This document shows, one piece after another, positions 22,166 to 44,594 of a stretch of DNA of 64,000 bases; the first letter of the stretch is position 1, and every line of letters begins with the position of its first letter. Below the pieces are notes generated by a model. That model was not told where the DNA came from, did not search any database, and worked only from the letters and a program-made list of their open reading frames with translations. This stretch comes from Candidatus Sulfomarinibacteraceae bacterium. Lineage in GTDB: Bacteria; Acidobacteriota; Thermoanaerobaculia; Thermoanaerobaculales; Sulfomarinibacteraceae. The stretch is from the NCBI GenBank assembly GCA_963796455.1, contig CAWCLO010000010.1, positions 512,001 through 576,000 of the forward strand, read 5' to 3'. Position numbers and translations under genes: made by a program.

Positions 22166-22367
22166 ACCCCGACTCTACCCTATCGACAAATCAGAGGGAA
22201 CGGCGGAGTGGATGCTGGATGCTAGATCACTCTTGTCCAAGACAGAGTCTCGGCTGGCGTTCAGGGACGGCGACAGCGATCAGCGTCAGGGACAGGGAAC
22301 AGCAATCAGTGTTCAGCGTCAGCGAACAGGAGTCAGCGTCACGTTTGACTGGCATGGGGCCCTGAAA

Positions 22368-22721
22368 TCAAGACTTCGGGTTGAGCAATCTCCAAGTCAT
22401 TGCACGCACCTGATCGAAGGCCATCATCGCTTTACTGGCTCCATTTCGACTGATCGCCCCGGCGTGGGCGAGGAGCTCCAAGTGGCTGTCGACCTCTTTC
22501 GCGGAAGCGTAGGCGATTCTCCAATGGTTCGACCGGTCTCTACCGACTCGGCCGTGCCCTTCTGCCAGATTCGCAGGGACCGAACTCGCCGACCGGATCA
22601 CCTGATCGGCTATGGACTTCAGCGGAGCTGGAACCCTCATCACGATCTTGATCGCGATTCCTGCTGCTTCGAGGGCTTTCGAGTGGGCGACGAGGTTGGT
22701 GTTCGTGGCGGCTGAGGACAT
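22368..22721 (-). CDS. Four helix bundle protein (23S rRNA IVP/Avd-like family)
   Basis: DQVIRSASSVPANLAEGHGR...IAYASAKE family motif; start chosen by homology with copy 2, which has a GGAGG SD. Confidence 0.85.
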   Translation of the reverse strand: MSSAATNTNLVAHSKALEAAGIAIKIVMRVPAPLKSIADQVIRSASSVPANLAEGHGRVGRDRSNHWRIAYASAKEVDSHLELLAHAGAISRNGASKAMMAFDQVRAMTWRLLNPKS

Positions 22722-22858
22722 GGTCACGTCCGGGTCGTTCATGCCCATTCCCACAAGCCGGTGTGGTGGCCGATGTCAAGGATGCCCTGCACCCTGCCTG
22801 TCCTTGACATCGGCCGCCCACCGGCTACCCCTTCTGTTGAACGACCCGGTGGTGACCA
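22721..22858 (-). ncRNA. 138-nt leader hairpin of cassette copy 1
   Basis: Long inverted repeat: TGGTCAC..CCGGGTCGTTCA/TGAACGACCCGG..GTGACCA plus inner GGCCGATGTCAAGGA/TCCTTGACATCGGCC. Confidence 0.65.
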
Positions 22859-23083
22859 CTTCGTCGCCTGTACTCCTGACCGCTGCTGCTGCTCTCGGCG
22901 CTCGCTGACGGTGTCCCTGTTCGCTGTTGCCTGTCGCTGACGCTGGACACTGTCGCTGCCGCTGCAATTCGGGATCGGGAACGGGTACGTGCCAACCGCG
23001 AACCGGATATGCCAAAAACCAACCCGTAAACCACGTGTTGTCAGGTGGGTAACTTCAGGTGACGATCTGTTTTGGACAGCAGT

Positions 23084-23144
23084 GATGCTAGATGCTAGAT
23101 GCTAGATGCTAGATGCTAGATGCTAGATGCTAGATGCTAGATGC
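23084..23144. repeat. GATGCTA heptamer tandem array (8 full units + partial)
   Basis: Read directly from the sequence. Confidence 0.95.
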
Positions 23145-23295
23145 GACAAGATCGTCGATTCACCCCAAAGCATTGTGAAGGGCTACACCGGAACTGATGG
23201 TGATTTGCGCTTGAGGGGACTTTTCAGGAGACAGATTCAATCGAGGATCGAGCATCCTGCGTCCAGCATCCAGTATCGAGCCTGGGTTGGTGGGC

Positions 23296-43633: not shown

Positions 43634-43808
43634 GCTATTTCCCGCGTCAGCGTCCCCGTGGATACAGGATGCAGGATGCAGGATCACTCTTGTCCAAGAC
43701 CGGGTCTCGGATAGCGTGCAGGAACAGCGACAGGGAACAGCGGACGGCGGCAGCGTTCAGTAGCCAGCGGCAGCGACCAGCGGCCGGGGCAGCGTCAGCG
43801 AACAACCC

Positions 43809-44162
43809 TTACTTGGTCGGGTTCAAGAGCCGCCACGTCATCGCGCGGACTTGATCGAAGGCGTTCATCGTTTCACGGGCTCCGTTCGGGCTGATCGCCC
43901 CGGCGTCGGCGAGGATCTGCAAGTGGCTGTCGACCTCTTTGGCCGAGGCGTAGGCGATTCTCCAGTGGTTCAAACGGTCTCTACCGAAACGGCCGTGGCC
44001 TTCTGCCGGGTTCGCAGGGACTGAACTCGCCGATCGGACTACCTGATCGGCTATGGATTTCAGCGGAGCTGGAACCCTCATCACGAGTTTGATCGCGATG
44101 CCTGCTGATTCGAGGGCTTTCGAGTGGGCAACGAGGTTGGTGGTCGTGGCGGCGTTGGACAT
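43809..44162 (-). CDS. Four helix bundle protein (23S rRNA IVP/Avd-like family)
   Basis: DQVVRSASSVPANPAEGHGR motif; GGAGG-TGACC-ATG; 18 of 117 aa differ from copy 1. Confidence 0.85.
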   Translation of the reverse strand: MSNAATTTNLVAHSKALESAGIAIKLVMRVPAPLKSIADQVVRSASSVPANPAEGHGRFGRDRLNHWRIAYASAKEVDSHLQILADAGAISPNGARETMNAFDQVRAMTWRLLNPTK

Positions 44163-44299
44163 GGTCACCTCCGGGTCGTTCATGCCCATTCCCACAAGCC
44201 GGTGTGGTGGCCGATGTCAAGGATGCCCTGCACCCTGCCTGTCCTTGACATCGGCCGCCCACCGGCTACGCCTTTCGTTGAACGACCCGGAGGTGACCA
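44162..44299 (-). ncRNA. 138-nt leader hairpin of cassette copy 2
   Basis: Perfect 21-bp outer stem TGGTCACCTCCGGGTCGTTCA/TGAACGACCCGGAGGTGACCA plus long inner stem. Confidence 0.7.
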
Positions 44300-44594
44300 C
44301 GCCGTCGCTGCACCTGATCGCTGTTCACTGTCCCTGCCGCTGATCGCTGACGCTGTTCCCTGTCGCTGCCGCTGACTACTGTTCGCTGACGCTGTCCCTG
44401 ATCACTGTCGCTGCCGCTGTAATTCGGGATCGGGATCGGGATCGGACACGGGCAACCGCGAACCGGAAATGCCACAAACCAACCCGTAAACCACGTGTTG
44501 TCAGGTGGGTAACCTCACCTGACGGCTTTTCAAGGGTGGTGTGTGATGAATCCTGAATCCTGCGCCCTGAATCTTGTACCTGGGTTGGCGGGCG

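Follow-up and report, generated by a model that had tools for sequence, protein, structure and literature searches.

A transposase-less cassette with IS4-family ends, probably mobilised in trans, carries a four-helix-bundle protein gene in a Candidatus Sulfomarinibacteraceae genome

Among bacterial proteins whose function is unknown, those of the PF05635/TIGR02436 family are some of the most abundant. Some are encoded within intervening sequences (IVSs) of 23S rRNA, as in Coxiella burnetii and Leptospira (S23p/23S_rRNA_IVP), where a long terminal stem surrounds the open reading frame (ORF). The Coxiella IVS is 428-444 nt long and has a 28-bp stem that is cut by RNase III, and the origin of ORF-bearing rRNA IVSs has been open since ~1990, with no more than conjectures that transposons left them behind or that they are themselves mobile (both in the accessible part of PMC4990558, the latter as cited there). 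Mobile insertion cassettes (MICs; an example is MIC231, whose ends are of the IS231/IS4 family) and miniature inverted-repeat transposable elements (MITEs) are described as units whose terminal inverted repeats (TIRs) are identical to those of an insertion sequence (IS), which encode no transposase, carry one passenger gene, leave a family-typical target-site duplication (TSD), are implied to be mobilised in trans and give rise to short derivatives without an ORF. Here we describe a PF05635 gene cassette found twice in a 64,000-nt stretch of the genome of a sediment acidobacterium, a member of Candidatus Sulfomarinibacteraceae (the window; positions 512,001 to 576,000 of contig CAWCLO010000010.1, assembly GCA_963796455.1). 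The units are best explained as a transposase-less mobile insertion cassette with IS4-family ends, which was probably moved as DNA, in trans, by a DDE transposase of that family.

The genome that holds the window (G000) is a 5.02-Mb assembly in 10 contigs with a completeness of 90.5%, in which the window is C10:512001-576000. The comparison set comprised 25 genomes of the genus, which are species representatives; congeners are labelled G0xx and loci L0xx. Copy A of the cassette is the unit in the ruvA-ruvB spacer, and copy B is the unit between a gene for 232 residues and tRNA-Lys. In gene sense, the two copies can be aligned only between the conserved left block and the right end, where they are ~90% identical. 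Copy A is also 95% identical to two other family copies. The parts of the two units, in gene order, are as follows.

22228..23084, minus strand: copy A, the whole cassette of 857 nt, CAC...GTG, delimited by the family alignment, TIR pairing and the TSD
23085..23093, minus strand: left copy of the 9-bp TSD ATCTAGCAT, host array sequence, 9/9 identical to the right copy
23067..23084, minus strand: left TIR CACTGCTGTCCAAAACAG, 18/18 identical to one end of an IS4-family IS in G017 and the same as the ends of MITEs in G021
22989..23066, minus strand: conserved subterminal block GTTACCCACCTGACAACACGTGGTTTACGGGTTGG..., with 60-80% column identity over 59 copies, possibly a promoter or regulatory site
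22860..22988, minus strand: (CCCGAT)n, then the left arm of CAGCGN hexamer repeats, predicted to pair with the right arm
22719..22859, minus strand: near-perfect hairpin of 138-141 nt, ~99% column identity, predicted at -90.6 kcal/mol
22368..22721, minus strand: copy A ORF of 117 codons, encoding a PF05635/TIGR02436 four-helix-bundle protein
22246..22367, minus strand: right arm of NCGCTG hexamer repeats and right subterminal sequence, paired in the predicted fold
22228..22245, minus strand: right TIR CTGTCTTGGACAAGAGTG, placed by TIR pairing
22219..22227, minus strand: right copy of the 9-bp TSD ATCTAGCAT, 9/9 identical to the left copy
43685..44545, minus strand: copy B, the whole cassette of 861 nt, with a degenerate left terminus CACACACCACCC... 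and flanks that match at 5/9 positions
44160..44300, minus strand: copy B hairpin, near-identical to that of copy A
43809..44162, minus strand: copy B ORF of 117 codons, intact
23094..23295, minus strand: host sequence outside the element, comprising the GCCCACCAACCCAGG clamp, a heptamer arm, a ~100-nt loop and an (ATCTAGC)n array

An earlier reading of the window from its letters alone (the sequence-only reading) had described a duplicated cassette, and the ORFs, hairpins, CAGCGN/NCGCTG arms, (CCCGAT)n, ~60-nt block and ATCAC/GTGAT ends were found where it had placed them. As it had also stated, neither unit encodes a transposase, integrase or reverse transcriptase (RT); the PF05635 gene was the sole conserved ORF in each. 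The copy number was far higher than two. In an initial DNA search of G000, in which 40 of 300 candidates were scored, at least 40 near-full-length matches of 80-100% identity were obtained, including the query itself. Using tblastn, we detected 97 segments, which included 59 full-length copies (58 of them open from ATG to stop), ~7 further loci divided over two frames and ~17 truncated fragments. By blastn, copy A matched 224 loci, together 98,657 bp or 1.96% of G000; 54 of these were 700-1,000 nt long, four were longer, 125 measured 150-700 nt and 41 were below 150 nt.

In the alignment of the 59 full-length copies, conservation extended from ATCAC-TGCTGTCCAAAACAG through CTGTCTTGGACAAGA-GTGAT. 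The hairpin and ORF were ~99% conserved per column, the flanking heptamers were half-conserved, and nothing was conserved farther out. The cassette ends are inverted repeats that match at 17/20 positions, giving TIRs of 18-20 bp. By pairing left and right ends genome-wide, we obtained 67 distinct units of 303-887 nt.

The 9-nt flanks of these units, taken outside CAC...GTG, matched at a mean of 7.07/9 positions, whereas shuffled pairings gave 4.72 ± 0.15, with a maximum of 5.22 in 1,000. The duplication was perfect in 21/67 units and matched at 8/9 or better in 36/67. Among the lengths compared (5, 7, 8, 9, 10, 11, 12 and 14), flank identity was 79% at 9 and 13-29% at the others, so that a chance match is excluded. 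The duplicated target has a palindromic consensus, ATSCWGSAT, and the 24 units without GGAT/ATCC flank words were also duplicated, as in ACGCAAAGA/ACGCAAAGA, GATAAAGAT/GATAAAGAA and TGCCCAGGT/TGCTCAGGT. Copy A has ATCTAGCAT on either side, and the left end of copy B is mutated.

RuvA was present in 25/25 genomes of the genus. The four-helix-bundle gene was found in 0/23 congener ruvA-ruvB spacers, which measured 23-606 nt versus 1,133 nt here, and in 0/23 congener spacers between the 232-residue gene and tRNA-Lys, which measured 46-457 nt versus 1,003 nt. The empty ruvA-ruvB alleles that the sequence-only reading had suggested looking for therefore exist at every congener locus compared, and the family is not confined to two copies at stably filled sites. 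As the congeners are species representatives, the insertions are dated just to after speciation.

The sequence-only reading had included in the element the heptamer repeats outside the ends and a GCCC(A/G)CCAACCCAGG motif that follows the host stop codon. Both are present as described, but heptamer hairpins of this kind also occur in empty congener spacers, and the true element is 22228-23084. Most of the 23 congener ruvA-ruvB spacers contain two inverted arrays of a 7-8-nt repeat, which is lineage-specific (CAGGGTG, GATCAGT, CAAGGTT, GGATACA and others, e.g. in L050, L051, L053, L054, L056, L060 and L061), and the arrays are often flanked by CCCACC... and ...GGGTGG words. Because the empty spacers have the same kind of heptamer hairpin, we assign to the host both the arms of heptamers and the motif after the stop codon. 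Likewise, the repeats abutting copy A are a direct duplication, and so are not complementary arms of the element. The first host heptamer arm, of the GGATGCT type, lies at 23245-23280; this complementary array, the ~100-nt stretch between the arrays and the GCCCACCAACCCAGG motif make up a host heptamer hairpin, and copy A is inserted into its (ATCTAGC)n array. The target 9-mer repeats every 7 nt in arrays of the (GGATGCW)n type, and in a strict test a period-7 array was found within 40 nt of 23/67 units, compared with 2.6% of 3,000 random intergenic positions. The intergenic heptamer arrays of this lineage thus serve as transposon insertion sites.

Gene context was called with a codon-model gene caller, which recovers ruvA and ruvB. 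All 59 full-length copies were intergenic. The gene ends facing the element were 3'/3' in 25 copies, 5'/3' in 16, 5'/5' in 12 and 3'/5' in 6; convergent gaps make up 20% of gaps genome-wide. The upstream gene was on the same strand as the element in 31 copies and on the opposite strand in 28, which argues against a need for host read-through. In tandem gene gaps, the element was antisense in 16 cases and sense in 6, and both window copies belong to the rarer sense class.

A candidate for the mobilising enzyme came from a genus-wide PF01609 search, in which 10/25 genomes were positive. Locus L094 of G017 holds a 1,411-bp IS, one end of which is identical to the cassette left end at 18/18 positions; its other end, CAGTCTTGTCCAAAACCG, is an imperfect inverse of this cassette-identical end. 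The IS has a single 427-codon frame without a frameshift, which matched PF01609 (DDE_Tnp_1, E 1.5e-25) and DUF4372 (E 3.3e-24) and contains YKDRWQIELFFKALK, the Y-(2)-R-(3)-E-(6)-K signature. Its ends read CACTG... and CAGTC..., i.e. 5'-CA. The criteria of the IS4 family, with its ends and ~8-13-bp duplications, are tabulated by De Palmenaer et al. (2008, PMC2266710). Judged against the accessible part of that paper, the size of the G017 element, its 5'-CA ends and duplications of 8-10 bp fit this family (compared with its IS4Sa/IS50-like subgroups), as do its single DDE_Tnp_1 frame, its signature and the 9-bp duplications of the derived elements. The differences are that the window elements lack a transposase and the G017 copy lacks a duplication. 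A cassette with IS4-family ends is therefore likely to have been moved by an IS4-family DDE transposase, and we infer from the shared ends that an enzyme of the G017 type may have acted in trans.

The cassette ends also occur with other cargo. The 18-nt left end, at up to two mismatches, was found 38 times in G021, 39 times in G006, 18 times in G008 and once each in G017, G005 and G016, and not at all in G014, G001, G004 or G003; a reversed-pattern control gave 0-1 matches. The ruvA-ruvB spacer of G021 (L062:2260-2650) contains both cassette ends and a perfect ATCCAACAT duplication around an unrelated interior. All 20 G021 loci fetched (L074-L093) were MITEs of 246-388 nt with cassette ends, which share just the terminal 19-30 nt with the cassette; 10/20 had perfect 9-bp duplications. 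A homogeneous 387-nt form of these MITEs has a GC-rich unrelated interior with several small hairpins. In G000 itself, a few units combine cassette ends with other interiors.

The cargo, in turn, occurs with other ends. G014 has 12 copies with arms, hairpin and ORF (73-80% protein identity) yet no cassette ends; these copies lie between CGGCTCATCCGGAA... and ...TTCCGGAAGAGCCG, are flanked on either side by AACGTT and sit inside (NAACGTTC)n arrays. We then surveyed the ends of 74 sufficiently long loci from named metagenome-assembled genomes (MAGs) of Candidatus Sulfomarinibacteraceae and other Thermoanaerobaculia/Holophagae. Both G000-type ends were present at 19/74 loci and one at 2/74; both G014-type ends were present at 5/74 and one at 21/74; 27/74 had neither type. 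The hairpin stem motif was kept at 69/74. Taken together, the TIRs, the 9-bp TSD, the IS4-type end identity and the swapping of ends and cargo indicate DNA transposition, probably in trans, rather than spread through RNA and an RT.

We next considered the protein. Both ORFs passed the curated cut-offs of PF05635 (33.8 bits; scores of 53.8 and 54.2, E 2.6e-14 and 1.9e-14) and TIGR02436 (24 bits; scores of 56.3 and 59.1, E 3.3e-15 and 4.3e-16), in agreement with the family assignment of the sequence-only reading. The protein model has four helices and a mean predicted local distance difference test (pLDDT) of 93.1. The closest solved relatives were XCC0516 (2gsc; template-modelling score (TM) 0.81-0.86, root-mean-square deviation (rmsd) 1.5 Å) and BT_0352 (2rld; TM up to 0.85), each deposited with five chains. 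The fold shared with Avd of diversity-generating retroelements (Bordetella phage BPP-1; 4dwl, 8ub7), which had also been claimed, was recovered with a TM of 0.77/0.84 and an rmsd of 1.6 Å to 4dwl. Unlike in the Avd system, no RT was found next to the gene or elsewhere in G000, and the sequence identity to Avd is ~10%; template or variable repeats were not seen at the cassette, although no search aimed at such repeats was made. The family motif is GxxRxxxSxxxNxxE (PMC3936711, accessible part). Its RxxxSxxxNxxE portion, here QVIRSASSVPANLAEG, was invariant in 23/23 aligned sequences, and the first position was Q rather than G.

As the substitution pattern indicates, the PF05635 gene is under purifying selection. 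Across the 58 intact ORFs (1,653 pairs), dN was 0.057 and dS 0.36, giving a dN/dS of 0.157, and the distances at codon positions 1/2/3 were 0.065/0.047/0.219. Eight reciprocal nearest-neighbour pairs, with 53 non-synonymous against 91 synonymous differences, had a pN/pS of 0.19. The 58 copies differ in amino-acid sequence mainly at residues ~82 and 91-101, in the helix 3-4 loop region. The variable patch at codons 91-101 (window 22420-22450) has the consensus ISRNGASEAMN, and the remaining protein is nearly invariant. The codon-usage log-likelihood ratio per codon was 0.079, versus a host median of 0.157, and the GC content at third codon positions was 0.70 versus 0.73; the host set had been pre-filtered on the same codon score, so no conclusion is drawn from codon usage.

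Judged from its sequence, the cargo is a constant module consisting of the gene, a ~140-nt hairpin at its start site and ~100-nt arms of hexamer repeats, in the layout of an ORF-bearing 23S rRNA IVS. RNA of the whole cassette was predicted to fold at -384.7 kcal/mol (z = -9.55; 0/20 shuffles as good) into a nested panhandle, in which the ends pair with each other, the left arm pairs with the right arm and the hairpin forms locally. The nested stem-loop proposed by the sequence-only reading was thus reproduced as a prediction. The 3' strand of the hairpin contains a GGAGG-like Shine-Dalgarno site and the ATG, and the 5' strand is predicted to pair with this site and the region up to the ATG. 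Among 81 distinct hairpins from several genomes, most of the 35 predicted pairs were invariant. Compensatory changes were found at two pairs (A-U/G-C, 57 vs 23; G-C/A-U, 61 vs 11), with four more in single sequences. The covariation that had been suggested as a check was therefore seen at a few pairs of the hairpin but not in a copy-specific form in the arms. In an Rfam search of the region (E up to 1), just two chance-level miRNA matches were found, far under the gathering scores.

These predictions allow an RNA-level model of what the module does. In a transcript, the two arms would pair into a long, imperfect duplex; RNase III would cleave it, as in rRNA IVSs, and so release the RNA of the module from adjoining transcripts. 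With the hairpin over the ribosome-binding site, little translation would take place. If it is a nucleic-acid-binding oligomer like XCC0516 or Avd, the protein may bind the hairpin and thereby regulate or stabilise its own message. As a joint claim (cleavage of the arm duplex, translation limited by the hairpin, hairpin binding by the protein) this model is tentative, and on balance we would sooner doubt it than accept it. No RNA runs were listed among those with the window stretch. Parts of the stretch were contained in 20 rows from DNA sediment metagenomes, and the contigs from four of the DNA runs were short and repeat-collapsed, with none across a junction and hence no empty site among them; one "823-nt skip" in metagenome contigs consisted of two inverted ends joined with unknown letters between them.

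Several observations weigh against the interpretation given so far, on both its DNA and its RNA side. The G017 transposase was found in 1/25 genomes of the genus, a MAG of 740 contigs in which it lies on a 3-kb contig; its IS copy has no visible target duplication. No cognate transposase was detected in G000 by tblastn with the G017 enzyme, and DUF4372 had 0 matches there. Thus, the link between enzyme and cassette comes from end identity, the family-typical duplication length and the 5'-CA ends, not from co-occurrence; a search for a co-occurring RT or transposase, which the sequence-only reading had called for, yielded an IS with a matching end in a congener, but no RT and no cognate transposase in G000. 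On the RNA side, most hairpin pairs are invariant, so conservation may be for sequence rather than structure. Left arms paired with their own and with foreign right arms equally well (-113.2 vs -113.6 kcal/mol, p = 0.51), i.e. there was no copy-specific covariation; this test is uninformative, since left and right arms pair in every combination. Arm pairing could be equally relevant in DNA, or be a by-product of the hexamer repeats. A sigma-70 consensus scan for promoters, run together with a terminator scan, returned 0 sites, so that no promoter was recognised for the module. PADLOC gave no match for the protein.

Candidate movers in G000 were rejected. The single PF01609 gene of G000 is single-copy and without cassette ends. 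Between terminus pairs 1.4-1.65 kb apart, the intervening DNA consisted of ordinary host genes and not of a transposase. At a contig end, L041 (G000 C7:291077-293780) contains a single-copy IS4-type frame of 358 codons that adjoins an IS110-like frame of 364 codons; neither frame has cassette ends.

In one part, the sequence-only reading agrees with the copy number, ends and TSD: the element is self-contained and dispersed, encodes no mobilising enzyme of its own and would be spread in trans. It went further, however, and likened the unit, folded in the host mRNA, to an "mRNA intervening sequence"; on this view taken to the RNA level, the unit would spread via an RNA intermediate, with its Avd-like protein aiding an RT in trans. 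The protein does have the Avd fold, a very stable nested stem-loop is predicted for the RNA, and each window copy points the same way as the genes beside it. Yet the identity to Avd is ~10%, the family-wide orientations (31 same vs 28 opposite; 16 antisense vs 6 sense in tandem gaps) do not favour an intervening sequence of host mRNAs, and the TIRs, the exact 9-bp duplication and the 18/18 match to an IS4-type parent are the signature of a DDE enzyme. No RVT_1 was found in G000, and the copies lack poly-A as well as variable 5' truncations; the one truncation that recurs is a microhomology deletion. We therefore give an RNA route very little credence. It is no more credible that the hairpins and inverted arms are substrates of a single-strand transposase (HUH/Y1, TIRYT/RAYT type), as in REP/BIME elements. 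The element is rich in hairpins, and G000 has six Y1_Tnp matches, three of which are TIRYT-like genes of 336-346 codons with their own inverted repeats; the ends of these Y1 elements (AAAGGTGCCAGGTACGGGGG...) are nonetheless unrelated to the cassette ends, and a 9-bp duplication is found here, whereas HUH transposition (IS200/IS605) is not known to leave a target duplication.

Two other explanations accept the DNA ends. The family may now be an immobile relic in G000, with ends that are only historical and copies that persist because the host has domesticated the protein into a multigene family of benefit to itself, RNA metabolism and defence being possible roles. The cognate transposase was not found in the G000 assembly, the median whole-element identity is just 85.7%, selection for transposition alone does not readily account for a nearest-neighbour pN/pS of 0.19, and PF05635 genes are reported from cas loci (PMC3936711, accessible part). 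Against these points, the two copies of the youngest pair, which occupy different sites and have different duplications, still share 98.4% identity over 864 nt; the PADLOC search was negative; and 58 redundant intact paralogues beside ~160 decayed loci have the look of a selfish family and not of a host gene. IS copies, moreover, are often lost from MAG assemblies. We consider domestication unlikely, although it deserves more weight than the RNA and single-strand routes. Alternatively, the protein could be an accessory transposition factor that binds the hairpin or ends as DNA and helps the transposase. This would explain why the protein travels with the ends, and would suit the purifying selection across copies and a hairpin more conserved than synonymous sites; Ralph and McClelland made a similar earlier proposal for IVS ORFs (as cited in the accessible part of PMC4990558). 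However, the same ends move a gene-less MITE in G021, and in G014 and further genomes unrelated ends enclose the module, which therefore does not depend on a single transposase. An accessory role thus seems distinctly improbable to us, and mobilisation of a transposase-less cassette by an IS4-family enzyme in trans remains the preferred explanation.

With this explanation, the family shows the IS-shared TIRs, the absence of an internal transposase, the fixed-length TSD and the empty orthologous sites by which MICs and MITEs are recognised. Compared with the MICs and MITEs in the accessible descriptions, it differs in its very high copy number (59 full-length copies, 224 loci), in a passenger that is under purifying selection in nearly all copies and wrapped in its own long inverted arms with a start-site hairpin, and in the occurrence of this passenger module between at least three kinds of ends. 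Compared with 23S rRNA IVSs, the window family is multicopy and has transposon ends and target duplications. The IVSs lie in helix 25 or 45 of the 23S gene, whereas all 59 cassette copies are intergenic; the 23S genes of the genus are uninterrupted, with 8/8 complete ones at 3,011-3,020 nt and that of G000 at 3,011 nt. We found no published description of such a cassette among the papers listed in literature searches, and no literature joining "mobile insertion cassette" with "four-helix bundle". In the titles, abstract beginnings and passages retrieved for PF05635, TIGR02436, 23S_rRNA_IVP or "S23 ribosomal protein", such a cassette did not appear.

A broader and more speculative possibility is that the selfish unit is the hairpin-arms-gene module itself. 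It would have been coupled repeatedly to different transposon ends (at least three end types in this bacterial family) and kept intact in dozens of copies by a protein that acts on the module's own hairpin, and ORF-bearing rRNA IVSs would be such cassettes that survived through removal by RNase III. Whether or not this holds, the window family makes a mobile-element origin of rRNA IVSs concrete and testable: its ends and its 9-bp target are defined, there is a candidate transposase, filled sites can be set beside empty ones, and the cargo has the IVS layout and is under selection in 58 copies. It is also a natural system in which to ask what the four-helix-bundle protein binds.

Among the 67 paired units, 40 were shorter than 780 nt and are internally deleted cassettes. 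In most short units, positions ~1-260 are joined to ~756-857, leaving the arms only; in a second short form, 275 is joined to 531. Of the nine fragments that start at residue 68, eight have a common junction between GTAGCCGGTGGGC and GGCCGAGTCGG, which lies at a 6-bp repeat, GGCCGA, found in both the hairpin and the ORF. Four of these eight keep both ends, and their flanks differ. In a tree of 66 tips, based on only 183 nt and weakly resolved, seven of the eight could be placed and formed no clade; each was nearest a full-length copy, five different ones being involved, and one was tied with another deletion copy. A recurrent deletion hotspot is therefore the better explanation, and propagation of defective copies is disfavoured.

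Some units were rearranged in other ways. At G000 C1:390882-391606, the hairpin-ORF segment of a cassette is inverted relative to the ends, an outcome that recombination of one hexamer arm with its inverted partner would be expected to produce. Two further units (G000 C4:114699-115252 and C5:1334-2018) retain the cassette ends, left block and right arm, and in them a palindrome on GTCATCCTGAGCGGAGC...GCTCCGCTCAGGATGAC replaces the left arm, hairpin and ORF.

Other transposase genes were seen in the course of the searches. A 498-codon PF01609 transposase occurs in two copies in G006 and one in G004 (L099, L103 and L095); one end of its element, TACTGTTGTC(A/G)AAGACAG, is identical to the cassette terminus at 14/18 positions, and from this likeness the element may be a sister IS of the same subgroup. 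The three Y1 (HUH) genes of G000 (L042, L043 and L044) lie at C4:1143411-1144448, C4:1146388-1147413 and C8:150795-151802. Their inverted repeats are ~30 bp long (AAAGGTGCCAGGTACGGGGGTATTGATGTT), and two of the genes, 3 kb apart, are 97% identical.

Finally, two features of the host heptamer arrays were observed. The gap between the 232-residue gene and tRNA-Lys starts with (GAATTCG)n straight after the stop codon. The loops between inverted arrays (L064, L066, L052 and window 23146-23244) contain a promoter-like TTGACA/TTGTCAA box, followed ~17 nt later by GATGAAT/GATGATT and directed at the downstream gene; given such a promoter, the second heptamer array would be a 5' leader.

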